Source: an uncultured Candidatus Saccharibacteria bacterium
GTDB taxonomy: Bacteria > Patescibacteriota > Minisyncoccia > CAIUEV01 > JAHKAQ01
NCBI GenBank assembly: GCA_964598205.1
Contig: CAZRBB010000001.1
Location: 156,199 to 220,198 of the forward strand
Reading direction: 5' to 3'
Length of the DNA stretch: 64,000 nucleotides
Shown here: positions 4,582 through 59,584 of the stretch, piece after piece
Position numbering within the stretch: the stretch's first letter is position 1
Layout: every line of letters starts with the position of its first letter
The notes under the pieces: generated by a model
The model's input: the letters and a program-made list of their open reading frames with translations, nothing else
Told to the model about the DNA's origin: nothing
Database searches by the model: none
Program-made: the position numbers and the translations under genes

Positions 4582-6404
4582 AAGAATTCTTTATAGAAAT
4601 TAATCAAAAAAAAGTACCAGTAAAAGAAGGAGAGTCTGTTTTAGATGTTTGCCGAAGAGAAAATATAGAACTGGCCTCTCTTTGTAGCCATCCTAATTTT
4701 AGCGACTGTCGACCGTCTGATTCTCTAACCTACAAAAGCCACTCTTCTTGTCGGCTTTGTCTAGTCAAAGTTCTTTTTAGTGGAGAAAAAAAGGAACGGT
4801 TGTTGCCAGCCTGCGATCTTAAAGTAGCACCGGGGGAGAAAGTAACAACGGAAGATAAGGAAATTATTAGAACCAGAAAAATCAATTTAGAACTTTTATT
4901 CGCCAGCCACGCCGGTCTTTGTGCTCATTGCTATCGCAACGGTGATTGTGAATTGCAAGAACTAGCTTCGCGCTACGATATAGACGAATACCGCTTTGCG
5001 CCACGATTTAGAGGAATTTCTCATCAAGAAGAAATGGCTCTTTTGTTCGAAAAGATGGTTAATCGCAAAGTAGATCTAAACAATCCATCTGTGGCAAGAG
5101 ATTCGGAGAAGTGCATTAAATGTCGTCGCTGTATTAAAGTTTGTCGTGACACGCAAACAGTCGAAGCTTATGCTTTTGTTGGCAAAAGCATAGAGGCGTC
5201 CGTGGGTACAGAATTTAATACTCCCTTGGAGTGTACTTATTGTGGGCAATGTACAGCGGTTTGTCCTACTGCCGCTCTAACGGAAAAAAGTCAGATTAAA
5301 AACTTCTTAGAAGCCATAAATGATCCCCAAAAAAAGGTGGCAGTCCAAATTGCTCCTTCAGTACCTTTTTCGTTAGGAGAAGAATTCGGAATGCCAGCGG
5401 GGTCTGTGGTAACAGAAGAAATGGTGACGGCATTAAAAAAAATTGGTGCAGATTTAGTCTTTAATACTAATCTAGGCGCCGATCTAACAATCATGGAAGA
5501 AGCCCATGAATTAATAGAAAGAATTAAATATCCCAAAAAAGACAAGCCATTGCCACTCTTTACCAGTTGTTGTCCATCTTGGGTGCTTTTTATGGAGCAG
5601 AATTATCCGCAACTTTTAGGCAATCTTTCTTCTTGTAGTTCTCCTCACATAATGCTGGGTTCGTTGATTAAGAATTATTACGCTTCCAAAAATAAACTAG
5701 AAAAAGAAAAAATATTTACTGTTTCCATTATGCCTTGTTTGTCCAAAAAATATGAAGCCGCAAGGCCGGAATTTTCTAAAAACGGAATAAAAGAAGTGGA
5801 CTGTGTATTAACTACCAGAGAATTGGGCAAACTTTTAAGGGAAAAGAAGATTGAACTTTCAGAACTAGAAGGTACGCCTTTTGATTCTGCGCTAGGAACG
5901 GGAACTAGTGCTGGTGCTATTTTCGGCGCTTCTGGAGGAGTGGCAGAAGCGGCATTGCGTACTGCTGTTTTTTTCTTAACCGGTAATAATCCGGCCATTA
6001 TTGATTTCAAAGAAGTCCGTGGAGATTTAGGCATTAAAATTGCCACAGTGAAAATTGCTGATCTGGAATTAAGAGTGGGGGTGGTTAATGGACTAGGTAA
6101 TGCTCGTCAAGTTTTAAAGGACTTAGGTTCCGGTGAGTTAAAATTAGATTTACTAGAAGTAATGGCTTGTCCTGGAGGTTGTATTGGAGGTGGTGGCCAA
6201 CCAATTCCTACTAGTCCAGAAATAAGGAAAAGACGAGCCGCTTCTATTTACAATCAAGATAAAAATTCTGTCTTAAGATTGGCTCATGAAAATCCGTTAA
6301 TAGAAAAAATATACAAAGATTTCTTATTTTCTCCGGGAAGTAAGAAAGCCCAAAAATATTTGCATACCAAGTACTATCCCTACCAATATCGCTATCGGCA
6401 ATAA
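4578..6404 (+). CDS. hydA: [FeFe]-hydrogenase catalytic subunit HydA with N-terminal ferredoxin-like domains
   Basis: H-cluster signature motifs present: L1 TSCCPSWV, L2 MPCLSKKYEA, L3 EVMACPGGCIGGGGQP. Upstream CIKCRRCIKVC and CTYCGQCTAVCP 4Fe-4S ferredoxin motifs. Confidence 0.9.
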   Translation: MKEFFIEINQKKVPVKEGESVLDVCRRENIELASLCSHPNFSDCRPSDSLTYKSHSSCRLCLVKVLFSGEKKERLLPACDLKVAPGEKVTTEDKEIIRTRKINLELLFASHAGLCAHCYRNGDCELQELASRYDIDEYRFAPRFRGISHQEEMALLFEKMVNRKVDLNNPSVARDSEKCIKCRRCIKVCRDTQTVEAYAFVGKSIEASVGTEFNTPLECTYCGQCTAVCPTAALTEKSQIKNFLEAINDPQKKVAVQIAPSVPFSLGEEFGMPAGSVVTEEMVTALKKIGADLVFNTNLGADLTIMEEAHELIERIKYPKKDKPLPLFTSCCPSWVLFMEQNYPQLLGNLSSCSSPHIMLGSLIKNYYASKNKLEKEKIFTVSIMPCLSKKYEAARPEFSKNGIKEVDCVLTTRELGKLLREKKIELSELEGTPFDSALGTGTSAGAIFGASGGVAEAALRTAVFFLTGNNPAIIDFKEVRGDLGIKIATVKIADLELRVGVVNGLGNARQVLKDLGSGELKLDLLEVMACPGGCIGGGGQPIPTSPEIRKRRAASIYNQDKNSVLRLAHENPLIEKIYKDFLFSPGSKKAQKYLHTKYYPYQYRYRQ

Positions 6405-7465: not shown

Positions 7466-7873
7466 ATGTCTAAAAAAAAATATTCCAAGAAACGTGGCTT
7501 CTCTTTAGTAGAGATGTTGGTGGTGGTAGCAATTATTGGAATGCTCGCCACTATCCTTTTGATCAATTATACTGGCCAATTAAAAAAGAGCCGTGACCAA
7601 AAAAGACGCACCGACGCCGAATCTATTAAATTGGCTTGCAATATGTACGCCAACCAGAACCAAAAATTCCCGGTGCAAACCGTGAACTCTACTGCTTGGG
7701 GGGCCCTGGTTACAGATCTTGATCCATATATTTCTCTTAGTTCCATTACGGATCCGCAGCAAGCAGGAGGAGGGGCTCATATTTATACTTATGTTGGGGC
7801 TGTGAATAATTGCACAATTACTTTTTATTCAGAAGTAAGTGGAGCCAATCAAACTATTCATTGTATAGATTAA
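7466..7873 (+). CDS. Type IV pilin-like / pseudopilin (prepilin-type N-terminal cleavage/methylation domain)
   Basis: KRGFSLVEMLVVVAIIGMLATILL: class III signal peptide with G-F-S-L-V-E motif followed by a hydrophobic helix. Confidence 0.7.
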   Translation: MSKKKYSKKRGFSLVEMLVVVAIIGMLATILLINYTGQLKKSRDQKRRTDAESIKLACNMYANQNQKFPVQTVNSTAWGALVTDLDPYISLSSITDPQQAGGGAHIYTYVGAVNNCTITFYSEVSGANQTIHCID

Positions 7874-9450
7874 TGGGAATGAATTATCTTATTAAAAACG
7901 GAACTATTGTTGATGGCACAGGAAAAATCCCTTATGAGGGAGATCTTTTGGTTGAGAACGGAAAGATTGCCGACCTTGGCGACCTAAAAGAGCAAGGTGA
8001 TTTTAAAGTAATTGATGGCGAAAATTTAGTAGTTTGCCCGGGATTTATAGATGTTAGTAATCATTCCGATGTTTACTGGACTCTCTTTGATTATCCTGTT
8101 CAAGAAAGTTTAATTACTCAGGGAATAACCACGATTATTGGGGGGAATTGTGGCACTTCTTTGGCTCCGCTTTTAAATGAAGAAGCGCTAAATTCTCTTC
8201 AAAAATATACCGAAATTAACAAGTCTCAAGTCCGTTGGGACTCTTTTGGTAGCCTAATGGAGTTTCTTTCCACTAGGAAATTTAATCCCAATTTTGCCAG
8301 CTTAGTAGGGCACTTAACGCTAAGACGGGCGATTGTGGGCGATGAAATGCGGCAACTTAGAAGTGATGAATTACAAATAATGGCCGAAGCCCTGGAAAGA
8401 TCCCTAGAAGAAGGAGCTTTAGGATTTTCTAGCGGATTGGTTTATAGCCATACCAGAATTGCTTCTGGAGAAGAAATAATTAAGATGGCAGAAATCACGG
8501 CAAAAGCTGGCAAAGTTTTTTCGATTCATCTAAGAGAAGAAGGAAGAGAAATTTTAAGCTCAGTAAGAGAAGCGCTGGCCATTGCCGAAGCCACCCAGGT
8601 TAAATTGCAAATTGCTCATTTAAAGGTTTGTGGTAGAAAAAATTGGCGACTACAAAAAGAAGTTCTGACTATTATCAATGAAGCTCGGAATTGGGGATTA
8701 GATGTTAGTTATGATGCTTATCCATACGCTTGGTCTGGGCCGGTTCTCTACACTCTTCTGCCTAAATGGGTTTCAGAGGGAGGTAAAGGACCACTTCTTT
8801 CCCGGATTAAAGATCCCCAAGAAAGGCATAGAGTTATTCAATCAATGCAAGAAAGTGGCTTTGACTATGGCGGTGTAATTGTGGCGACTTCTAATGTAGG
8901 GAAAAGTTTAGCCAATCACCGAGTAGCGGTTATTGCCAAAAATCAGGAAAGATCAATAGAAGAAGTATTTTTGGATTTGGTTTCTGTTTCCGAAAATCGG
9001 ATTACGGGATTGGTAGAAAATATTAATCAAAAGAATATAAAACAGTTGATTGCCGAAGAAGGTTCTTTTGTTTCTACTAATGGTGCTGGATACTCTTCTC
9101 GGCATTTAAAAGAAGGAGAGTTGGTTCATCCGCGTTGCTTTGGTGCTATGCCTTATTTTTTAAGAAGCTTTGTTTTTTCAGAAAAGATTCTTTCCCTAGA
9201 AGATGCTATTGCTAAAATAACCAGCGGTCCAGCCACTAAATATGGTCTTCTTCGTCATAAGGGGACCCTTGAAAAAGGCAAAGATGCTGATATAGTTGTT
9301 TTTGATCCTCGAAAAATTAAAGGCAAGGCGACCATTGATTCCCCTTTTGTTTATTCAGAGGGAATTAAAGAACTGTTCATTGGGGGGAATCAAGCAATAT
9401 CCAATTATAAAATTACTCAAGATAAATTAGGTCGTCCGCTTACTATTTAG
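7873..9450 (+). CDS. Amidohydrolase, N-acyl-D-amino-acid deacylase (D-aminoacylase) family
   Basis: NGTIVDGTG...LLVENGKIADLG...PGFIDVSNHSD metal-dependent amidohydrolase N-terminus. Start moved to ATG 7873 (TAATG overlap with the pilin stop) rather than the track start 7810, which overlaps the pilin gene. Confidence 0.7.
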   Translation: MGMNYLIKNGTIVDGTGKIPYEGDLLVENGKIADLGDLKEQGDFKVIDGENLVVCPGFIDVSNHSDVYWTLFDYPVQESLITQGITTIIGGNCGTSLAPLLNEEALNSLQKYTEINKSQVRWDSFGSLMEFLSTRKFNPNFASLVGHLTLRRAIVGDEMRQLRSDELQIMAEALERSLEEGALGFSSGLVYSHTRIASGEEIIKMAEITAKAGKVFSIHLREEGREILSSVREALAIAEATQVKLQIAHLKVCGRKNWRLQKEVLTIINEARNWGLDVSYDAYPYAWSGPVLYTLLPKWVSEGGKGPLLSRIKDPQERHRVIQSMQESGFDYGGVIVATSNVGKSLANHRVAVIAKNQERSIEEVFLDLVSVSENRITGLVENINQKNIKQLIAEEGSFVSTNGAGYSSRHLKEGELVHPRCFGAMPYFLRSFVFSEKILSLEDAIAKITSGPATKYGLLRHKGTLEKGKDADIVVFDPRKIKGKATIDSPFVYSEGIKELFIGGNQAISNYKITQDKLGRPLTI

Positions 9451-51233: not shown

Positions 51234-52298
51234 TTGTTTTTTATGTTGGATAAAATTTTTGGCCATTTTTCTCACGACATTGGCATTGACCTTGGTACGG
51301 CCAATACTTTGGTTTATGTTAAAGGCAAGGGGATTGTGATTAACGAACCTTCTGTAGTAGCGATTAACACTAAGACCAATCAAATTTTGGCAATTGGGAG
51401 TGAAGCCAAAAAAATGGTGGGCAAAACTCCCGGTCATATTATGGCCAAGCGACCATTAGCCGACGGCGTAATTTCTGACTTTGAAGTGACCGAGCAAATG
51501 CTGAAATATTTTATTAACAAAGTCCACAAGGAAAGTTTTACCCTTTTGCCTAGACCACGAGTAATTGTGGGGATCCCTTCTGGTGTAACCGATGTAGAAA
51601 GGCGCGCGGTGCAAGAGGCAGCCAAAAATGCTGGTGCTCGCGAAGCCTTTTTAATAGATGAACCAATGGCAGCGGCGATTGGCGCGCGACTACCGGTTCA
51701 GGAAGCGGCCGGCAATATGATTGTAGACATTGGTGGAGGCACTACGGAAATTGCGGTAATTTCTTTGGGTGGCGTGGTGGTTTCTCGGAGCTTGCGAGTG
51801 GCCGGAGACGAATTAAACGAAGATATTGTACGCTACGCTAGAGAAAGATTTAATTTACTTTTAGGAGAAAAAACGGCCGAAGATGTAAAGATTGCTATTG
51901 GTTCGGCCTACGAAATGCCCGAAGAAGTAGAAATGATTATCCGTGGTCGGGATTTGGTAACGGGGCTTCCCAAAGAAGTAATGATTACCGATGTCCATAT
52001 CCGCGAAGCCATGAGTCGTTCGGTGCGCATTTTAGTTTCCAATGTTAAGGCCATGATTGAAGAAACTCCACCCGAACTGGTTGCCGAAATTATGCAAAGA
52101 GGTATTATCTTGGCAGGCGGTGGAGGATTGTTGCGCGGTTTGGATCGCTTGATTTCCGAGCAGGTAGAAACACCAGTTAAAGTAATGGAAGATCCATTAA
52201 CAGCGGTGGTGCGGGGAGTAGGAATTGTGCTAGAAGATTTAGACAACCTTAGGAGCGTTTTAATAGAAGGTGAAAACGAAAAAGCGCCTAAGTGGTAG
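51234..52298 (+). CDS. mreB: Rod-shape determining actin homologue MreB
   Basis: IGIDLGTANTLVYVKGKGIVINEPSVVA phosphate-1 motif. 354 aa. True start may be the internal ATG at 51243. Confidence 0.9.
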   Translation: MFFMLDKIFGHFSHDIGIDLGTANTLVYVKGKGIVINEPSVVAINTKTNQILAIGSEAKKMVGKTPGHIMAKRPLADGVISDFEVTEQMLKYFINKVHKESFTLLPRPRVIVGIPSGVTDVERRAVQEAAKNAGAREAFLIDEPMAAAIGARLPVQEAAGNMIVDIGGGTTEIAVISLGGVVVSRSLRVAGDELNEDIVRYARERFNLLLGEKTAEDVKIAIGSAYEMPEEVEMIIRGRDLVTGLPKEVMITDVHIREAMSRSVRILVSNVKAMIEETPPELVAEIMQRGIILAGGGGLLRGLDRLISEQVETPVKVMEDPLTAVVRGVGIVLEDLDNLRSVLIEGENEKAPKW

Positions 52299-52319: not shown

Positions 52320-52392
52320 GTCCCGGTAGCTCAGTGGATAGAGCAACAGCCTTCTAAGCTGTGGGCCGCAGGTTCAAGTCCTGCCCGGGACG
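52320..52392 (+). tRNA. tRNA-Arg (anticodon TCT)
   Basis: GTCCCGG-TA-GCTC-AGTGGATA-GAGC-A-ACAGC-CTTCTAA-GCTGT-GGGCC-GCAGG-TTCAAGT-CCTGC-CCGGGAC-G. Confidence 0.85.
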
Positions 52393-52396
52393 CAAG

Positions 52397-52433
52397 TAAA
52401 AAAAGAATGACCAATTTGGTCATTCTTTTTTTA
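52397..52433 (+). terminator. Rho-independent terminator after tRNA-Arg
   Basis: aagaatgacc-aattt-ggtcattctt hairpin flanked by A-run and T-run (bidirectional-looking). Confidence 0.7.
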
Positions 52434-52444
52434 CTTTTGACTAG

Positions 52445-52720
52445 CGCAGGACTTGAACACGAAGGGGGTCGGGGAAACTGTAGTTTCCCCGTTGGGGGTG
52501 ACAGCGAGTCCCGTTGAAAACGGGACGAGCGCCAGAGGGCGGAAGCCCTATGGAGAGCGAGCAAAGCGAGCGAGTGAAAGTCCTGCCATTAATATCTTGA
52601 ACGGGGATGGGGTCGGGAAACCGGGAGGTTTCCCGTGGCGGAGGAATCGGAACCGATGGGTTCCGAAGCGGAGCGAACCGCAGCGGAGCGGAGGTGAGTG
52701 AGCAGTGAAATTCCTGCCCG
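52445..52720 (+). ncRNA. GC-rich structured tandem element (two ~135-nt units), candidate structured RNA or tRNA-derived repeat; identity unknown
   Basis: Both units run from 'cttgaac' to 'gtgaaa(g/t)tcctgcc'. Each carries two strong hairpins at equivalent positions with different sequences (ggggaaactgtagtttcccc vs gggaaaccgggaggtttccc; cccgttgaaaacggg vs ggaaccgatgggttcc). All six reading frames are open, which is typical of non-coding GC-rich DNA. Confidence 0.4.
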
Positions 52721-52893
52721 AGGATATTCAAAATATTTAATATACTATAAAAATCTTCGAATCAATCATTGAATAATTTGTTATTGATCTTTTACAAAAT
52801 AAAGACCGCCAGTATTTGCCACTGGAAAGCAATGAATCATAAAGTTCCTAGTACACTAGGAACTAGGAACTTTTTTTGTTATGATATAAGCAC

Positions 52894-53887
52894 TATGAAA
52901 ACATCTAAGAAAATACTTGAATATATAGCGAAGAATGGTCACGCAAGCGGAAAGGAGCTTGTTGATAGTCTTGGTGATATTACCCCGAGAGCCGTGCGTA
53001 AGCAGTTAAAAAATCTTTTAGATGCTGGCGAGCTAAAAAAGATTGGGCGTCCGCCAAAGGTTTTCTATTCTTTAGTTCCCAAGATAGTAATGAGCACGCT
53101 TACGCTCCGAAGAGATTTTTTAAATGTGGATTTGAAAACACGCAATAGTATTGATAGTCAATATCTCTACATTACGCCTGCCGGTGAGATGAAGCTAGGC
53201 TGGGATGGATTTGTGGCATGGTGCGAAAAGACGAAACAGAATCCGGAAAAGACAGCGAAGGAATACTTATCAACTCTTCGGAAGTGTGATGTTTTTTTTA
53301 GAAATGGACTGATTGATGGGATGGGAAAAATCCAAAGCACATTCAAAGATGTATACCTTGACCAACTTTTCTATCTTGATTTTTATAGTATTGAGCGATT
53401 TGGAAAGACAAAAATCGGTCAGTTGCTTTTGCATGCCAAAAACAGTCAGGATCGGAAACTGATGAAACCATTGATTGATGATATCCGACCAAGGGTTGTG
53501 GCGTTGATAAAAAAGTATTCAATCGAAGGCGTTTTGTTTGTTCCTCCAACCGTGAGGCGTGAAATTCAGATTATGAAAGAAATCGAAAGAAACCTAAAAC
53601 TTCCCATAAGCACACTTGTTGTTGCAAAAGTGAAAACACAAATTGCAGTTGCGCAGAAAACGCTTTTAAAACTTGAGGATCGAATAGAAAATGCAAAGAA
53701 AACGATTGTTGTTGAGGATACTAGGACGTATGGCAATATTCTTCTAATAGATGATGCTGTTGGATCAGGATCGACTCTAAACGAGACCGCCGCTCAGATT
53801 CGAAAAAAGGGTTTGTGTCGTGGGAAGATTATTGGATTAGCGATTGTGGGAAGTTTCAAAGGATTTGATGTTATTAGTGAGATATAA
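52894..53887 (+). CDS. Winged-helix DNA-binding domain fused to a C-terminal type I phosphoribosyltransferase (PRTase) domain
   Basis: N-terminus KKILEYIAKNGHASGKELVDSLGDITPRAVRKQLKNLLDAGELKKIGRPPKVFYSL (wHTH). C-terminus VVEDTRTYGNILLIDDAVGSGSTLNETAAQI (PRPP-binding loop). Start set at ATG 52894, preceded by tatgatataa. Confidence 0.6.
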
Positions 53888-53950
53888 CCAAAATCTCTGA
53901 TCGCAATTATGCTATCTTATAATTAATTTTTAGAGTGCTAATCCTCACTA

Positions 53951-55069
53951 ATGTATTACAAAAACCATTTAGCCGAATCTAATCTAAAGAATACATTACA
54001 AGAAGAACTAGCAAAAAAAGACAAAGAACTAGCTGAGTTAAAAGCTGAAAAAGATCGTAATTTTGCAGAGCAATTAGCAAAAAAGGAATCCGAGATTGCT
54101 GAAATGAAATCAAAAATCACCAATGCTGAAACGGAGAAAAAATTAGCTGTCACACAAGCAGTCAATTCCGTAGAAAAAGAAAGGGATGATTTTAAAATCA
54201 AACTGCAAAGCAAAGAACATGAAATGCAACTCTGTGAAGTTTCATTAAAAGACAAATATGAAAATGAATTGAAATTAAAGGACGAAATGATTGAACGATA
54301 CAAAGACATGAAATTAAAACTCAGCACGAAAATGATCGGTGAGACACTTGAGCAACACTGTGAAACTGAGTTTAACAAAATTCGTGCCACGGCTTTTCCA
54401 AAAGCCTATTTTGAAAAAGATAATGATCCCAAAACTGGCAGCAAGGGTGATTTTATCTATCGCGAAACTGATGAAGACAAAAACGAAATCATTTCTATAA
54501 TGTTTGAAATGAAAAATGAAAGTGATGAAACCGCCACTAAAAAAAGAAATGAAGATTTTTTGCACGAGCTTGATAAGGACCGTACCGAGAAAAAATGCGA
54601 GTATGCTGTTCTTGTTACGTTCTTGGAAGCCGAAAATGAATTATATAACACCAGCATTGTTGATGTCTCTCATAAATACCCCAAAATGTATGTAGTTCGA
54701 CCACAATTTTTTATCCTAATCATTACACTACTCCGCAACGCAGCCATGAATTCTCTAAAATACAAAGCCGAACTGGCATTGATGCGAACACAGAATATTG
54801 ATGTTACTACTTTTGAAGGCCAATTAAATGATTTTCGCGAATCATTTGGCAGAAATTTCAGATTGGCATCCGAAAAGTTTAAAAACGCCATTGGTAGTAT
54901 TGATAAATCGATTGAGCAACTTCAAAAGACCAAAGAGAGTCTTTTGCGATCTGAAGATAATCTGCGCCTGGCTAATAATAAAGCTGATGATTTGACAATA
55001 AAGAAGTTGACACGTGGGAATTCTACGATGAAGGCAAAGTTCGAAGAGCTTCCCGATAAAAAGGAGTAA
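53951..55069 (+). CDS. DUF2130-family protein (coiled-coil N-terminus plus predicted PD-(D/E)xK-like C-terminal core)
   Basis: [62 protein letters not shown]...EYAVLVTF matches the DUF2130 conserved block as I recall it. The D...E.K spacing is suggestive of a nuclease fold. Confidence 0.6.
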
Positions 55070-55306
55070 GCCACTTGAACTCGGAACATAATTCACCCCT
55101 AACCATCCTCCCATCTCTCCAAACCCCAAAATAAATTTAATTTAGACGCTTGCCCACCATAGCTTTAGCGAAGGAGGGATAGCTCGTCAAAAAAAAGAAT
55201 ATCTCCGTTAATTCCATAATGAGTCTTATTATGGAATTAACATTTCCAATATTGGAATCATAATATCTACTTCAAACCTTCCCATCTTTTGACCTAATCT
55301 CTCCAA

Positions 55307-55489
55307 ATGCTAACCAAAATTTTAAAAAAATTAACTCTAAGGAAAGAACAGAAAGAATCTCCCCGCAAATCTTTTTTAGAGATGCCCATAAGAGACCAAA
55401 GGAAAATCATCAAAAAAGCGGTAGAAGAATCCAACAAGGAACAACGCAAACTCGTAGAAAGATACGAAAATAAATTTGGCCACGCTTAG
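55307..55489 (+). CDS. Hypothetical small basic protein (possible regulator of the downstream Fic gene)
   Basis: 60-aa K/R/E-rich ORF with no motif. Confidence 0.2.
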   Translation: MLTKILKKLTLRKEQKESPRKSFLEMPIRDQRKIIKKAVEESNKEQRKLVERYENKFGHA

Positions 55490-55564
55490 GGAAAAAGTTG
55501 CAAAGCACAGAGCTAGGGGAGTAGAAAAGAGATTTCAATGCTATGCACAAGCAGTGTGCAGACA

Positions 55565-55594
55565 TTGACAAATATGCACAAAAAACAGTAAAAT
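55565..55594 (+). promoter_or_regulatory. Sigma70-like promoter (TTGACA-18-TAAAAT) with overlapping TGCACA/TGTGCA palindromes upstream of the Fic gene
   Basis: ttgacaaatatgcacaaaaaacagtaaaat, with inverted repeats gcacaagcagtgtgc and atgcacaaa...tttgtgcat around it. Confidence 0.5.
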
Positions 55595-55625
55595 TTGTGC
55601 ATAACAAAAATAATCCAAAAACACT

Positions 55626-56714
55626 GTGTTTAATCGCAATATTCCCCACAATCAACTGCCATTACTTCCACCCGATTTTAATTTCAACGATGTGGATCTT
55701 TTAAAGTTGGTGAACAAAGCCAATAACTCTTTGTTCGAACTAAAAGGAATGGCTAATGTTTTGCCCAACAGCGGAATTTTAGTTTCCCCATTGACGATTC
55801 GTGAAGCGGTTGCCAGTAGTGGAATTGAAAATATTAACACAACTGTGGCGGAAGCCCTTAAAGCAGATGTTATTTATGAAAAGTCAGAACTCTCCGGAGC
55901 CGAAAAAGAAATCCTAAGGTATCGGGACGCTCTTCGTGAGGGATATAAAATGCTTAAGAAGAATGAGTTTTTAAACACGAATAGTTTTGTTGAAATTCAA
56001 TCAGTATTGGAGCCGAATAAAAAAGGTATTAGGAAAATTCCCGGAGTTGCAATTAGGAATTCAAAAACCGGCGAAGCCATTTATACCCCGCCGGAAGGAC
56101 ACGATGTTATATTAAAAAAACTCAAAAATTTTGAAGATTATTTTAATGATCAAAAAAACTTTGATGACATTGATCCACTAGTACGCATGGCGGTGATGCA
56201 TTATCAATTTGAGTCCATTCATCCATTTTTAGATGGTAATGGAAGAACTGGTAGAATAATTATGATTCTCTATTTGGTGCTAACAAAGCGTTTGGAATTG
56301 CCAATTTTATTCTTAAGCAAATATATCCTAGAAAACCGAGATGAATATTATAAAAAACTACGCGGAGTTACGGAAAACAAAGAATGGCTAAATTGGGTTT
56401 TTTATATCCTTCGGGGTATTGATATGCAAGCGCAGGAAACAAGAAAAAATATTTCACAGATCAAAAAATTAATGGAAGAATACAAAGAAATTTCTCTAAA
56501 AGAGGGCGTTCATATGACATCTCGCATGCTGGATTATCTTTTTTCAAATCCGTTTTATTCGCAAAAAAAGATGGCGGAGAGTCTCAGTATCCATAGGAAT
56601 ACTGCTGCAAAATATTTTCAAGAGCTAGAAAAATCAAAAATTGTACAGAAATTCAAGCACAAGCAAGGGTATATTTATTATAATCAAGCATTTCTTAATA
56701 TCATGAGCTATTAG
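55626..56714 (+). CDS. fic: Fic-family protein (class II: N-terminal inhibitory motif plus Fic core), C-terminal wHTH
   Basis: HPFLDGNGRTGR Fic active-site motif. N-terminal SSGIEN fits the (S/T)xxxE(G/N) auto-inhibition motif. Confidence 0.85.
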   Translation: MFNRNIPHNQLPLLPPDFNFNDVDLLKLVNKANNSLFELKGMANVLPNSGILVSPLTIREAVASSGIENINTTVAEALKADVIYEKSELSGAEKEILRYRDALREGYKMLKKNEFLNTNSFVEIQSVLEPNKKGIRKIPGVAIRNSKTGEAIYTPPEGHDVILKKLKNFEDYFNDQKNFDDIDPLVRMAVMHYQFESIHPFLDGNGRTGRIIMILYLVLTKRLELPILFLSKYILENRDEYYKKLRGVTENKEWLNWVFYILRGIDMQAQETRKNISQIKKLMEEYKEISLKEGVHMTSRMLDYLFSNPFYSQKKMAESLSIHRNTAAKYFQELEKSKIVQKFKHKQGYIYYNQAFLNIMSY

Positions 56715-56961
56715 AGTTTTCGATGTAACTTTAAGAATGAATTCTTAAAAATTGTTTTTGGTATAAATAAAACATTCAATCTTGAAAGGGAAAGAGGTGT
56801 GCGATTCCCCAAAGCCATCTTAACTTGGCTGGGGTAAAGTATGCTGTGCAAACCCTCTCAAAACCCCTTATAATTCGGTACAATTACCGTATTAAGTTCA
56901 GACAAACCCTTATTTTGGGATGCTGATCCCGCCAAAATTAATCTCAATAAGAACAATCAAA

Positions 56962-57933
56962 ATGGCCAAAAAAGAAATTATTATCTATCAATCAAAAAAC
57001 GGTGCTCTTAGGTTTAGGGGAGATTTTAAAAAGGAGACTATTTGGGCGAGCTTGCAACAAATTGCCAATCTTTTTGAAACCGACAAATCCGGTATCTCTC
57101 GCCATATTCAAAATATTTATCAAACTGGTGAATTGGAACCAAAGGCAACTGTTGCAAAAATTGCAACAGTTCAAACCGAGGGGAATCGAACAGTAAAAAG
57201 GGAAATTGAGTATTACAATTTGGATCTGATTCTTTCTGTAGGATATCGTGTCAATTCCAAAACAGCCACGAAGTTTCGCCAGTGGGCAACCAAGACACTG
57301 CGCGAGCATATTGTTACGGGCTACACCATCAACAAAAAGCAAATCGCTAAAAATTACGCTCAATTTTTACAAGCAGTTGAATCGGTAAAAAAGCTGTTGC
57401 CGGCCGGCGGGCAAATCGAGGTAGGAGACACGCTGGAGCTGGTTAAAATGTTTGCCAATACTTGGATGTCTTTGGATGCGTACGATAAGTCTTCCCTGCC
57501 CAAATCCGGCTCAACCAAAAAACAAGCCAAAATAACGGCGGAAGAATTAACGGAAGCAATCGCGGAATTAAAGAGGGACTTACAAAAGAAAAAGGAAGCT
57601 ACGGAACTTTTTGCCCAAGAACGCCAAAAAGAAGCGATTGCCGGTATTGTGGGGAATGTATTTCAATCGGTTTTTAGTCGCGACGCTTACGAAACGCTGG
57701 AAGAAAAATCGGCGCATCTGCTTTACTTTTTTGTAAAAAATCATCCGTTCGTTGACGGCAACAAAAGAAGCGGAGCGTTTGCGTTTGTATGGTTTTTAAA
57801 TAAAGCTGGGCTTTTACAAAAAGACAGAATGTCTCCCGAAGCGCTGACTGCGCTTACGCTTTTAGTAGCTGAAAGCAATCCTAAAGACAAAGACAAAATG
57901 ATCGGCCTAGTGTTGCAACTGCTTAAGAGGTAA
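56962..57933 (+). CDS. RhuM-family N-terminal domain fused to a Doc/Fic-fold domain (death-on-curing-like)
   Basis: N-terminus IIIYQSKNGALRFRGDFKKETIWASLQQIANLFETDKSGISRHI (RhuM). C-terminus NHPFVDGNKRSGAF (Doc-type HxFx(D/N)GNKR). Start at ATG 56962. Confidence 0.8.
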   Translation: MAKKEIIIYQSKNGALRFRGDFKKETIWASLQQIANLFETDKSGISRHIQNIYQTGELEPKATVAKIATVQTEGNRTVKREIEYYNLDLILSVGYRVNSKTATKFRQWATKTLREHIVTGYTINKKQIAKNYAQFLQAVESVKKLLPAGGQIEVGDTLELVKMFANTWMSLDAYDKSSLPKSGSTKKQAKITAEELTEAIAELKRDLQKKKEATELFAQERQKEAIAGIVGNVFQSVFSRDAYETLEEKSAHLLYFFVKNHPFVDGNKRSGAFAFVWFLNKAGLLQKDRMSPEALTALTLLVAESNPKDKDKMIGLVLQLLKR

Positions 57934-58109
57934 AGATAACAAAAGCGATTAGCTACATTCTCTTTCCCCTAAATGTCGGCCAGAGAAAAGTTTTCACTGT
58001 CAATGAAAACAATCCCAGAATAGTTTTCAATATAAATGAAAACATTTGCTTTAAAAAAGTCATCAGGAAAAAGCACCATGGTTGATAGTTGACTGTAAAC
58101 TGTAAACTA

Positions 58110-58604
58110 ATGAAAAATAAATTAAGAAAATCAGTTATTGTGACTTTTTTCCTCCTGATGTTATTAAGCGTTTCCGTATCTTTATTTAATTTTTGGCAAA
58201 TAAAAAATCTAAAGAGAACTAGCAACGCAAGGATAGAAGAGCTGGAATACTTCTACAATGATTTTAGGGAGATTTCTAGAAAAGAACCAAAGAAGAATAT
58301 ACCGGAAGAAATTTCTCCGGAAAACACAGAAAAAGCCTGGGCAATTCATGAGCAGGATAACGAAAACTTAAAAGAAAGATCGCTGAAACTTTCTCCAGAC
58401 GGAACAAAGAAGGCTTATTTTCAGGAAAAGTTTATCTCAGATATTAAAGATATTGGGAATACCGATTATATTTCTTTAATCGTAGAGAAAAAAAACGGGG
58501 ATAATGAAATCTATTTCAAATTCCACCGCCCAAACCCTATCAAAACCCCATATAATTTGGTACAATTACCACATCAAGCAAGAGTAAAACTGCAAAATAC
58601 TTAA
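58110..58604 (+). CDS. Hypothetical signal-anchored protein
   Basis: N-terminal TM helix. The 3' end overlaps a conserved 40-nt intergenic motif, so the real stop may be earlier. Confidence 0.35.
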   Translation: MKNKLRKSVIVTFFLLMLLSVSVSLFNFWQIKNLKRTSNARIEELEYFYNDFREISRKEPKKNIPEEISPENTEKAWAIHEQDNENLKERSLKLSPDGTKKAYFQEKFISDIKDIGNTDYISLIVEKKNGDNEIYFKFHRPNPIKTPYNLVQLPHQARVKLQNT

Positions 58605-58622
58605 TATTTTAGCGTTCAGAAA

Positions 58623-58874
58623 ATGACCCAAGACGATCTAGGAAAATATTTCTGGGATGTTGATGTTAAAGAGATTGATTTTGGCAAACATGCCCGTTTT
58701 GTTATTGAAAGAATCCTAAATTTTGGTAACGAAGAATCTGTTAGATGGCTACGAAAGCGCTATTCCGACAATGAAATAAAAGAGGTCGTTTTAAAGAGTA
58801 GAAATTTAAATAAAAAAGCTCGTAATTTTTGGAACATCATTTTTCAAATTAATTTTTCTAAGAACAATGGATAA
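58623..58874 (+). CDS. Small protein upstream of, and overlapping, the AbiEii-like nucleotidyltransferase; putative cognate antitoxin
   Basis: 83 aa. 8-nt overlap with the downstream gene, typical of TA pairs. Family not recognised. Confidence 0.4.
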   Translation: MTQDDLGKYFWDVDVKEIDFGKHARFVIERILNFGNEESVRWLRKRYSDNEIKEVVLKSRNLNKKARNFWNIIFQINFSKNNG

Positions 58875-59511
58875 TAATCTTCATTTGGAAGTTTTGCCGG
58901 AAGATCAGAGGCTATTATTACAAAAATTAGCAAAGGAAGACTGGCTTGGGGATTTTTATTTGGCCGGAGGAACGGCCTTGGCCTTGCAAATAGGACACCG
59001 CGAATCTATTGATTTTGATTTCTTTTCTAAAAAAGAATTTGGGCATCAAGAGATTATTCAAAAGCTGGAGAGAATCGGTTCCTTTGAATTGTTTCAGGGA
59101 GATGAGGGCACTATCAATGGTCGGCTTTCAGAAATTCGGATTTCTTTTTTTTACTACAAGTACAAAATCGTAGAAGATCCAATAGTTTATGAAAAATTAA
59201 ACATTGCCAATAAGCTTGATATTGCTCTTATGAAATTAGAAGCCATCTCGGGCCGTGGTAGTCGTAAGGATTTTATTGACCTTTATTTTCTCTTAAGAGA
59301 GTTTTCCTTAGAAAGACTATATTCTGATTATCCTCTAAAATACGGCCAAGGATTGGATAATAAATATCACTTATTAAAATCTCTAGCCTATTTTGAAGAC
59401 GCGGAAAAAGAACCTATGCCAAAAATGCTCATTTCTATTGATTGGGAAAAAATAAAATCGGCAATCTTAAAAGAGGTTGGCACAATTGAACAAAACATTT
59501 TAAAAGAATAA
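58867..59511 (+). CDS. Nucleotidyltransferase, AbiEii/DUF1814-like toxin family
   Basis: FYLAGGTALALQIGHRESIDFDFF matches the GGTAL...HR.S.DiDf motif of PF08843-type nucleotidyltransferases. Confidence 0.65.
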   Translation: MDNNLHLEVLPEDQRLLLQKLAKEDWLGDFYLAGGTALALQIGHRESIDFDFFSKKEFGHQEIIQKLERIGSFELFQGDEGTINGRLSEIRISFFYYKYKIVEDPIVYEKLNIANKLDIALMKLEAISGRGSRKDFIDLYFLLREFSLERLYSDYPLKYGQGLDNKYHLLKSLAYFEDAEKEPMPKMLISIDWEKIKSAILKEVGTIEQNILKE

Positions 59512-59584
59512 ATTTTCACCCCCGCACTCTAATAAAAGAGATACGAGGGTGAGTTGTTTTGTTCGGCTGGGTTTTGTTGCAATG

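Follow-up and report, generated by a model that had tools for sequence, protein, structure and literature searches.

We analysed a stretch of 64 kilobases (kb) of contig CAZRBB010000001.1 from an uncultured Candidatus Saccharibacteria bacterium, called the window throughout, in which a tRNA-Arg gene is followed by guanine–cytosine (GC)-rich repeats and then by a group of toxin- and defence-type genes at 52.9–59.5 kb. An earlier note, made from the sequence alone, had suggested that this segment is a degraded integrative island with the repeats at its boundary. The explanation that we consider best overall, with a moderate degree of confidence, is a joint one: an accessory toxin/defence cluster stands beside two old tandem copies of a small element that contains no open reading frame (ORF), which we call E, which is roughly 100–145 nucleotides (nt) long and which is probably a tiny integrative cassette. 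The gene cluster is ordinary, and the boundary repeats are the more important part of the locus.

The host group is the Patescibacteria (candidate phyla radiation), and the closest MreB proteins among GTDB species representatives are 68–77% identical; the best MreB matches come mostly from metagenome-assembled genomes labelled as Patescibacteria groups, for example Moraniibacteriota and Parcubacteria, and some carry other labels. The closest ProS, in a search of 5.8 billion proteins, is about 65% identical. Other contigs and loci used for comparison are given L-numbers, of which L001–L080 are 80 related mreB loci. Contigs with an identical MreB or peptidyl-prolyl isomerase (PPIase) that reach into the segment have the arrangement unchanged in every case, and only the same population was retrieved; two Logan contigs of that population, L202 (SRR35365870_4044) and L203 (SRR35365835_3448), both stop 57 nt past mreB, within tRNA-Arg.

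Element E beside tRNA-Arg and elsewhere

The gene mreB (51243–52298) lies directly before the tRNA-Arg gene (anticodon TCT), which begins 22 nt past it and occupies 52320–52393 on the forward strand (ARAGORN; Rfam tRNA, 73.5 bits). The tRNA flank named in the earlier note is thereby confirmed, slightly upstream of where that note began. An AT-rich perfect hairpin at 52394–52436, found by repeat search and folding, forms a palindrome resembling a bidirectional terminator. It is surrounded by an inverted repeat (I1) with 43-nt arms at 52372–52414 and 52416–52458 that are 86% complementary, so that the complementarity reaches into the T-arm of the tRNA on one side and into its inverted copy on the other. 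The GC-rich, tRNA-like repeats that had been noticed here are real and consist of two tandem units, 144 nt apart, at 52446–52728, with a GC content of 0.51 versus about 0.37 for the window and folding z-scores of −6.0 (+ strand) and −8.8 (− strand) relative to shuffled sequence.

Both units are copies of E on the forward strand, as identified by a covariance model of the element, R1. Unit A (52446–52592; 48.9 bits, E-value 2e-11, over 52447–52519) opens with the T-loop and T-stem of the tRNA in inverted orientation, GCAGGACTTGAAC, at 52446–52458, continues with the conserved hairpin GGGGTCGGGGAAAC..GTTTCCCCG and ends in GTGAAAGTCCTGCC, which repeats part of the tRNA 3′ half in direct orientation, with AAGTCCTGCC at 52578–52587; its 3′ half is atypical. 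Unit B (52588–52728; 76.1 bits, E-value 2e-19, over 52591–52722) contains the hairpins P2, CGGGAAACC..GGTTTCCCG, and P3, GGAACCGATGGGTTCC, and ends in GTGAAATTCCTGCCCGAGGAT, in which the tRNA 3′ end is repeated directly but in decayed form, with AATTCCTGCCCGAGGA at 52709–52724. The tRNA-end copies in both units are parts of the T-loop, T-stem and acceptor strand, with several mismatches and truncations.

From the conserved hairpin we derived the search pattern GGGGTCGGGRAAMC-N3-6-GKTTYCCCG, which occurs in at least 120 metagenome stretches, on contigs whose gene content resembles that of Patescibacteria. All counts given for E (133 pattern instances, 97 testable copies, 120 loci and so on) are counts among the matches listed. 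The model R1 finds 111 copies in 99 element loci, and when run on 1.39 Mb of unselected sequence from 81 genomes it finds only the two units of the window and the copies in L026 and L034; these two loci, each with E directly past tRNA-Lys(TTT) and a terminator, are also the only ones among the 80 relatives in which nhmmer detected homologues. A tRNA gene lies at most 400 nt upstream of 58 of the 133 pattern instances, on the same strand as E in 57 of these 58, and 18 amino-acid identities are covered. E usually follows a tRNA at a distance of 8–140 nt or adjoins the end of a conserved protein gene. Some seemingly tRNA-free copies follow tRNAs missed by ARAGORN, for example those interrupted by a group I intron (L122, L083). 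Group I introns were seen beside E in L092 (476–739, +) and L122 (11083–11320, +), scoring 82.7 and 67.1 bits in Rfam; the one in L122 is located where a tRNA unreported by ARAGORN is inferred from a duplicated tRNA-like 3′ end, and the one in L092 lies, as judged by eye, within a tRNA-like gene on the opposite strand.

In general the parts follow one another as gene body – X – Y1 – (terminator or promoter) – X′ – core – X – Y2. Here XY stands for the final 15–90 nt of the tRNA or conserved protein gene and Y2 for the original gene end, now displaced; X′ has the reverse-complement sequence of X and closes off the structured core. At tRNA targets the tRNA is followed by an optional bidirectional terminator hairpin and by X′, here the reverse complement of the T-loop and T-stem of that same tRNA, sometimes with a few acceptor bases. 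Then come GGGAAA, the hairpin P2 (GGGGT-CGGGAAAAC-loop-GTTTTCCCG), the linker TGGNGGAAGTA, the hairpin P3 (NNNAAACC-Gnn(n)-GGTTTNNN), and GGAG with a short hairpin (often GCGAAGC) and CGACG. After these the tRNA sequence is repeated in direct orientation, beginning at the T-loop (which often reads GTGAGAT in place of GTTCGAT) and running past the 3′ end, and a second terminator completes the order. The ends of E thus match the local tRNA.

The helices of the core are conserved and covary. In the alignment of the 111 copies 95.5% of the cells are paired, 14 of the 17 pairs change on both sides, and none of 500 shuffles reaches the observed values. The stems contain 1635 Watson–Crick pairs, and the mismatches comprise 14 G.T, 25 A.C and 53 others; that G.U is not favoured over other mismatches hints at a constraint at the level of DNA, or on both strands. 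For the closing stem, in which X′ pairs with the sequence directly past the core, 23% of copies score at least 9, compared with 0.8% in shuffles.

A duplicated gene end, often of apparently foreign lineage, generally accompanies E. In 61 of the 97 testable copies the upstream flank and the sequence directly past the core share a significant direct repeat of 15–88 nt. At protein genes E stands at the C-termini of same-strand genes (ClpP in L197, ribosomal protein L18 in L088) or at the N-termini of opposite-strand genes (translational GTPases in L110, L133, L155 and L174, a PHP-type protein in L108), and X′ is the reverse complement of the first 10–14 nt of the repeat in every clear case. The repeat copies of eight protein-coding cases differ by 47 synonymous and 9 non-synonymous codon changes (56 in total), with ratios such as 8:0 in L108, 9:0 in L133, 5:0 in L164 and 4:0 in L174; since the divergence is mostly synonymous, it is not what would be expected of a decaying spare copy. 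It suggests instead that the two repeat copies derive from different orthologous lineages, and that E may have spread horizontally together with a replacement gene end. In L108 the gene-fused copy is AT-rich, and the gene body and the displaced copy are GC-rich. The loci L019, L026 and L034 share not only the tRNA-Lys and seryl-tRNA synthetase (SerRS) genes but also the second terminator; therefore copy 2 is the ancestral end and the insert consists of the new 3′ end, the terminator, X′ and the core. The encoding of CCA, considered as a clue to the native repeat copy, was uninformative.

A candidate integrative cassette

In the working model that we consider most likely, the unit [Y1 – flank – X′ – core – X] behaves as an integrative cassette of very small size. 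It would recombine at the conserved motif X and supply its own replacement gene end, so that the target gene would remain intact. X′–core–X would act as a folded hairpin imitating the duplex target, comparable to attP(+) of CTXphi or the attC sites of integrons. The enzyme would have to be provided in trans, and the intermediates would be circular or single-stranded, with the crossover at X. The model builds on what the copies directly display, namely their architecture, the conservation and covariation of their helices, the ends matched to the target and the synonymous bias in the divergence of the repeat copies.

Several features may be signs of activity. Similarity of the cores is higher within one contig (median 0.81) than between contigs (0.69), the copies at tRNA-Met and tRNA-Asp of L100 are 91% identical, and tandem arrays exist in the window, L149 and L166. 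The motif of E lies at most 130 nt from a contig end in 19 of 129 cases, compared with about 9 expected, and so the region of tRNA and E appears to break metagenome assemblies. Two inverted copies about 4 kb apart were seen in L167 (1–86 and 4007–4092, identical) and L155 (1–71 and 4515–4621); these pairs could be assembly artefacts or a composite arrangement.

Several observations weigh against a cassette. The motif X varies between targets, unlike what would be expected for a recombinase with a fixed sequence specificity. No significant repeat is present in 36 of the 97 testable copies, the repeats in L155 and L130 differ by non-synonymous changes only (0:2 and 0:5) and bring the totals to 47:16 when included, and the reading frames for the codon comparison were picked by inspection. 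An empty orthologous site, an excised circle or a catalysing enzyme for E was not found, L019 holding a different insert, and the two copies in the window are degenerate. The sole recurrent neighbour of E is a small GIY-YIG ORF, present in 10 of the 120 element loci and absent from all 80 mreB loci. A function of E as RNA is also still conceivable. The GIY-YIG (URI-domain) ORFs encode about 80–95 amino acids and lie within a few nt of E-bearing tRNA genes, upstream of the tRNA in L105, L135 and L168 and downstream of E in L150, L178 and L186; the remaining loci are L123, L156, L173 and L177.

Other identities of E were considered and rejected. It does not correspond to a known RNA: Rfam 15 gave no match to the window copies up to an E-value of 1 and none to five canonical copies, and an Rfam scan of the whole window at gathering thresholds returned only tRNAs. 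A phage-borne origin found no support in pattern scans of viral contigs, which gave 0 matches. As for E being the end of a larger integrase-bearing element, no recurrent enzyme is found among its neighbours but the small GIY-YIG ORFs, there is no ORF within the unit itself, and neither repeat partners farther upstream, looked for over as much as 10 kb, nor versions with large cargo were found. A tRNA-like minihelix RNA processed in the fashion of a tRNA does not fit, as the copies at protein-gene ends share the layout, and a retron link with the adjacent phosphoribosyltransferase (PRTase) gene was discarded, as no reverse transcriptase is present here and no PRTase gene is found beside other copies of E.

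Another reading, which we regard as unlikely, holds that E works as a structured non-coding RNA, produced together with the tRNA or mRNA or beside it, and that it could act in stability, processing or regulation, with a closing stem adapted to the neighbouring gene and with repeats that are local duplications, without any mobility. The conserved and covarying helices and the strong folding z-scores would be natural for such an RNA, as would the co-oriented downstream position of 57 of the 58 tRNA-linked copies and the terminator that follows many copies. However, where E stands at the 5′ end of a protein gene, it is found on the strand opposite to the gene, so that its orientation to transcription varies, and G.U pairs are no commoner than other mismatches. 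The mostly synonymous divergence of the copies is unexpected for local duplication with a decaying spare, no Rfam family matches, and near-identical cores are found at different targets within one contig.

Toxin and defence genes beside the tRNA

The gene content listed in the earlier note for the segment downstream of the repeats is borne out by hidden Markov model matches and motifs. The first gene (52895–53887, +; start codon as in the gene call of L201) encodes a winged helix-turn-helix (wHTH) protein with a C-terminal PRTase domain resembling ComF and PsyrT, for which the Pfam matches are weak: HTH_DeoR at 9.5e-5, HTH_24, and both PRTase-CE and Pribosyltran under their cut-offs. PADLOC gave the C-terminal region of PsyrT at 1e-13 and PRTase_III-A at 3e-7, and NCBIfam gave comF at 7e-5, far under the cut-off. 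A relative of this protein in the PDB was not found by sequence. It is followed by a DUF2130 protein (53951–55069, +; Pfam DUF2130, 3.4e-87) with an N-terminal coiled-coil-like region, which has no PADLOC match and no PDB relative, and by an ORF of 60 amino acids (55307–55489, +; gene call in L201 and L204) that matches nothing in Pfam, PADLOC or NCBIfam.

Downstream of this ORF lies the gene of a SoFic-type class II Fic protein, a predicted AMP transferase (55626–56714, +; Pfam Fic_N, Fic and SoFic-like_C). We required the motif HxFx(D/E)GNGRxxR, an N-terminal (S/T)xxxE(G/N) and a full-length profile match for this assignment, and the translation contains the Fic motif HPFLDGNGR (HPFLDGNGRTGR) and the N-terminal inhibitory motif SSGIEN, as expected of class II, with a PADLOC SoFic match over the full length (3.9e-104, residues 12–360). 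The protein is best described as a member of the family rather than a proven equivalog. By its family it would AMPylate its targets after release of the N-terminal inhibitory glutamate. The protein of the next gene (56920–57933, +) joins a RhuM domain at its N-terminus (Pfam Virulence_RhuM, 2e-24) to a Fic domain of the Doc type (Pfam Fic, 2e-12). Its architecture matches PDC-S23 in PADLOC (6.5e-115), DOC_P1 of NCBIfam scores 39.9 bits against a cut-off of 38.65, and its motif HPFVDGNKR fits the Doc motif HxFx(D/N)(A/G)NKR. By its family, the Doc-type domain would phosphorylate a translation factor. A separate upstream gene for a Phd-type antitoxin was not found, nor any small upstream ORF with a family match.

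A hypothetical protein of 164 amino acids with a hydrophobic N-terminus (58110–58604, +; gene call in L201 and L204), without a family match in Pfam, PADLOC or NCBIfam, precedes the last pair of genes. These are a small DUF6922 protein, the presumed antitoxin partner (58623–58874, +; Pfam DUF6922, 3.4e-18), and an AbiEii-like nucleotidyltransferase, the presumed toxin (58867–59511, +; Pfam AbiEii, 57.5 bits against a cut-off of 22.5, 2.5e-15), and they overlap by 8 nt. The PADLOC AbiEii models match weakly (about 3e-6), and the overlapping upstream gene is DUF6922 rather than the wHTH antitoxin partner AbiEi. If the pair behaves as its families do, DUF6922 would restrain the nucleotidyltransferase. 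A DUF6922 and AbiEii-like pair that is 34% and 40% identical to that of the window was seen in L154 (4677–5528), about 3 kb from a locus of tRNA-Arg(CCT) and E on a contig unrelated to the window; the DUF6922/AbiEii pairing therefore recurs.

A 48-nt repeat, D1, occurs within the cluster as two copies that are 88% identical, where 0 would be expected by chance: one at 56849–56896 (+), upstream of RhuM-Doc, and the other at 58531–58578 (+), upstream of the DUF6922/AbiEii pair and overlapping the 3′ end of the 164-amino-acid ORF. It contains TATAAT and the palindrome GGTACAATTACC and was found only in contigs of this genome. The two modules may share D1 as a promoter or operator, or D1 may have been left behind when cassettes were gained piecemeal.

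The surroundings of mreB are different in the relatives. In 68 of the 80 related loci mreB is directly followed by mreC, which starts about 12 nt past it, pbp2 is found within 6 kb downstream of mreB in 64 and mreD in 29, while homologues of mreC, mreD and pbp2 are absent from the entire window; this genome has a broken or partly lost rod-shape operon. In the relative L068 the order is lepA, mreB, mreC, mreD, pbp2, a hypothetical gene, an M23 gene and SulP on the minus strand, from which it follows that mreB and SulP are common flanks with differing content between them. The segment at 52.9–59.5 kb contains several toxin or defence modules of one or two genes each, independent of one another, within a variable slot that extends from mreB and tRNA-Arg to PPIase and SulP; an integrase-borne island cannot be demonstrated here.

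Some points count against calling these genes an accessory toxin/defence cluster. The accessory status rests on distant relatives (MreB at most 77% and ProS at most 66% identical), with no strain free of the cluster found for comparison, the SoFic protein scores 329.6 bits in NCBIfam against an equivalog cut-off of 550, and DUF2130 and the wHTH-PRTase protein are not established defence genes.

We find it improbable that the whole of 52.8–59.5 kb is the remnant of a tRNA-integrated genomic island which has lost its integrase and of which the GC-rich repeats are decayed attachment (att) sites. Such a history would explain why the segment adjoins a tRNA, why mobile-type toxin and defence genes are grouped, why synteny breaks precisely past mreB and why partial copies of the tRNA 3′ end are found at 52578–52587 and 52709–52724. 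Both of these copies, however, lie less than 400 nt from the tRNA and on the same side, so that the segment is not bracketed by repeats, and nothing comparable exists at a distance. A search of the whole window with 20-mers of the tRNA 3′ end, allowing up to 3 mismatches, returned only tRNA-Arg itself, and a local-alignment scan of the whole window only the T-loops of other tRNAs; the direct repeat that the earlier note had proposed to look for near 59.5 kb is thus absent there and everywhere beyond 52.8 kb in the window. Among the ORFs of at least 60 amino acids on the coding strand from 52.7 to about 60 kb, Pfam, PADLOC and NCBIfam gave no match to an integrase family, in agreement with that note, and no excisionase was found among the scanned ORFs either. 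The GC content of 0.33–0.42 across 53–60 kb, compared with about 0.29–0.46 elsewhere in the window, shows no compositional anomaly. Moreover, members of this repeat family are found at no fewer than 100 other loci, where the nearest downstream ORF is mostly of a housekeeping type, and no large-cargo versions of the family were found. As a marker of islands E is therefore rejected, the first downstream ORFs having been judged by eye, without a family scan.

What stands of the degraded integrative island is an accessory toxin/defence cluster at a tRNA locus, with the linkage of mreB broken and with the flanks seen in L068. What is not supported is its integrative origin, given the lack of an integrase, of a distal att-like repeat and of a GC deviation. 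The GC-rich repeats do not bracket it, as both lie on the tRNA side, and they belong to a separate family of small elements. Units A and B are old insertions on that side and give no information on the arrival of the 6.7 kb of toxin and defence genes; the adjacency of the E family to the gene cluster may be incidental, or it may be a sign of a generally permissive locus.

Unrelated cores, known systems and significance

The layout of E was also seen with unrelated GC-rich cores, in L019 (17990–18175, −), L154 (about 5950–6145, −) and L189 (about 7830–7986, −), in the order tRNA, terminator, inverted T-arm copy, GC-rich insert and direct copy of the tRNA 3′ end; the insert in L019 occupies the same tRNA-Lys/SerRS locus at which L026 and L034 have E. 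These unrelated cores weigh against an explanation by E in particular, since the layout may therefore stem from a general process and not from E. The corresponding alternative, that some general process of repair or replication (for example fold-back priming and template switching at terminator hairpins) left the layout as its scar and that E is the commonest filler, homogenised by gene conversion, would also account for the long palindromes from the tRNA 3′ half via the terminator to X′ and for the variable length of the direct repeat (15–88 nt), but it seems to us very unlikely in view of a core of about 100 nt with covarying helices at 18 tRNA identities and several protein genes in many samples, of synonymous-biased divergence that indicates import from another lineage, and of a precise geometry in which X′ pairs with the first bases of the repeat. 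Structured RNA, repair scar and island att remnants are all less probable than the cassette, and each of them conflicts with part of the data.

Tentatively, and as something on which we would not yet wager, E and the unrelated cores of the same layout may form an undescribed class of ORF-less mobile cassettes that settle where conserved genes end (those of tRNAs, translational GTPases, ClpP and ribosomal proteins), each with a replacement end and a target-mimicking hairpin, which would be spread by a trans-acting host enzyme that is either unspecific in sequence or guided by pairing. No description of an E-like element was found in the full-text literature that we searched.

Integrative elements that target gene ends and carry a replacement end are known, such as the P4-like islands and SXT/R391, which is found at the 5′ end of prfC. 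They resemble E in that the target is kept intact by a new terminal segment, in that the displaced end is left as a direct repeat and in the choice of conserved targets (tRNAs, translational GTPases). In contrast to them, the units of E are only about 200–300 bp long, carry neither an integrase nor any other ORF, have a crossover motif that depends on the target, and possess in addition an inverted copy of the target beside a structured core.

For this last feature the closer parallels are the recombination sites that act as folded single strands, attP(+) of CTXphi and attC of integrons. As in E, inverted target-like copies about 100 nt apart can pair there to form an imperfect stem resembling the duplex target, the interior is variable or structured, and the architecture is conserved more than the sequence. 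E differs from them in that no dependence on Xer or IntI has been demonstrated, in that its stem fits many targets and not dif or GTTRRRY, and in the long duplicated gene end beside it, which the CTXphi and attC systems do not produce. Miniature inverted-repeat transposable elements (MITEs), repetitive extragenic palindromic (REP) elements and other small palindromic repeats are, like E, short, ORF-less, GC-rich, hairpin-forming, multi-copy and intergenic. However, the ends of E are copies of the local target rather than conserved terminal inverted repeats, there is no target-site duplication of fixed length (the repeats span 15–88 nt), and E is specific to the ends of conserved genes. The inverted ends of E also differ from locus to locus, unlike those of a MITE or another transposon-derived repeat.

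The gene cluster is similar to the defence islands and toxin–antitoxin clusters beside tRNA genes, in which unrelated stand-alone modules are packed into a variable slot near a tRNA, and it shares with them such module types as SoFic, the RhuM-Doc fusion of type PDC-S23, the AbiEii-like pair and a PRTase-domain protein. It differs from them in lacking an integrase, flanking att repeats and a compositional signal, in its small-genome patescibacterial host, and in members, DUF2130 and wHTH-PRTase, that are not established in defence. The cluster is a routine further case of toxin and defence genes collecting at a tRNA locus, here in a small-genome, host-dependent bacterium.

The wider meaning lies with the repeats. 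E is a family of small structured elements without a match in Rfam 15 or the literature searched, present in at least 120 metagenome stretches, and in practice partial tRNA-end repeats of the E type should not be taken for the att sites of genomic islands. If E is mobile, it would show how DNA without genes can enter essential genes harmlessly, and it would point to an unknown recombination activity.

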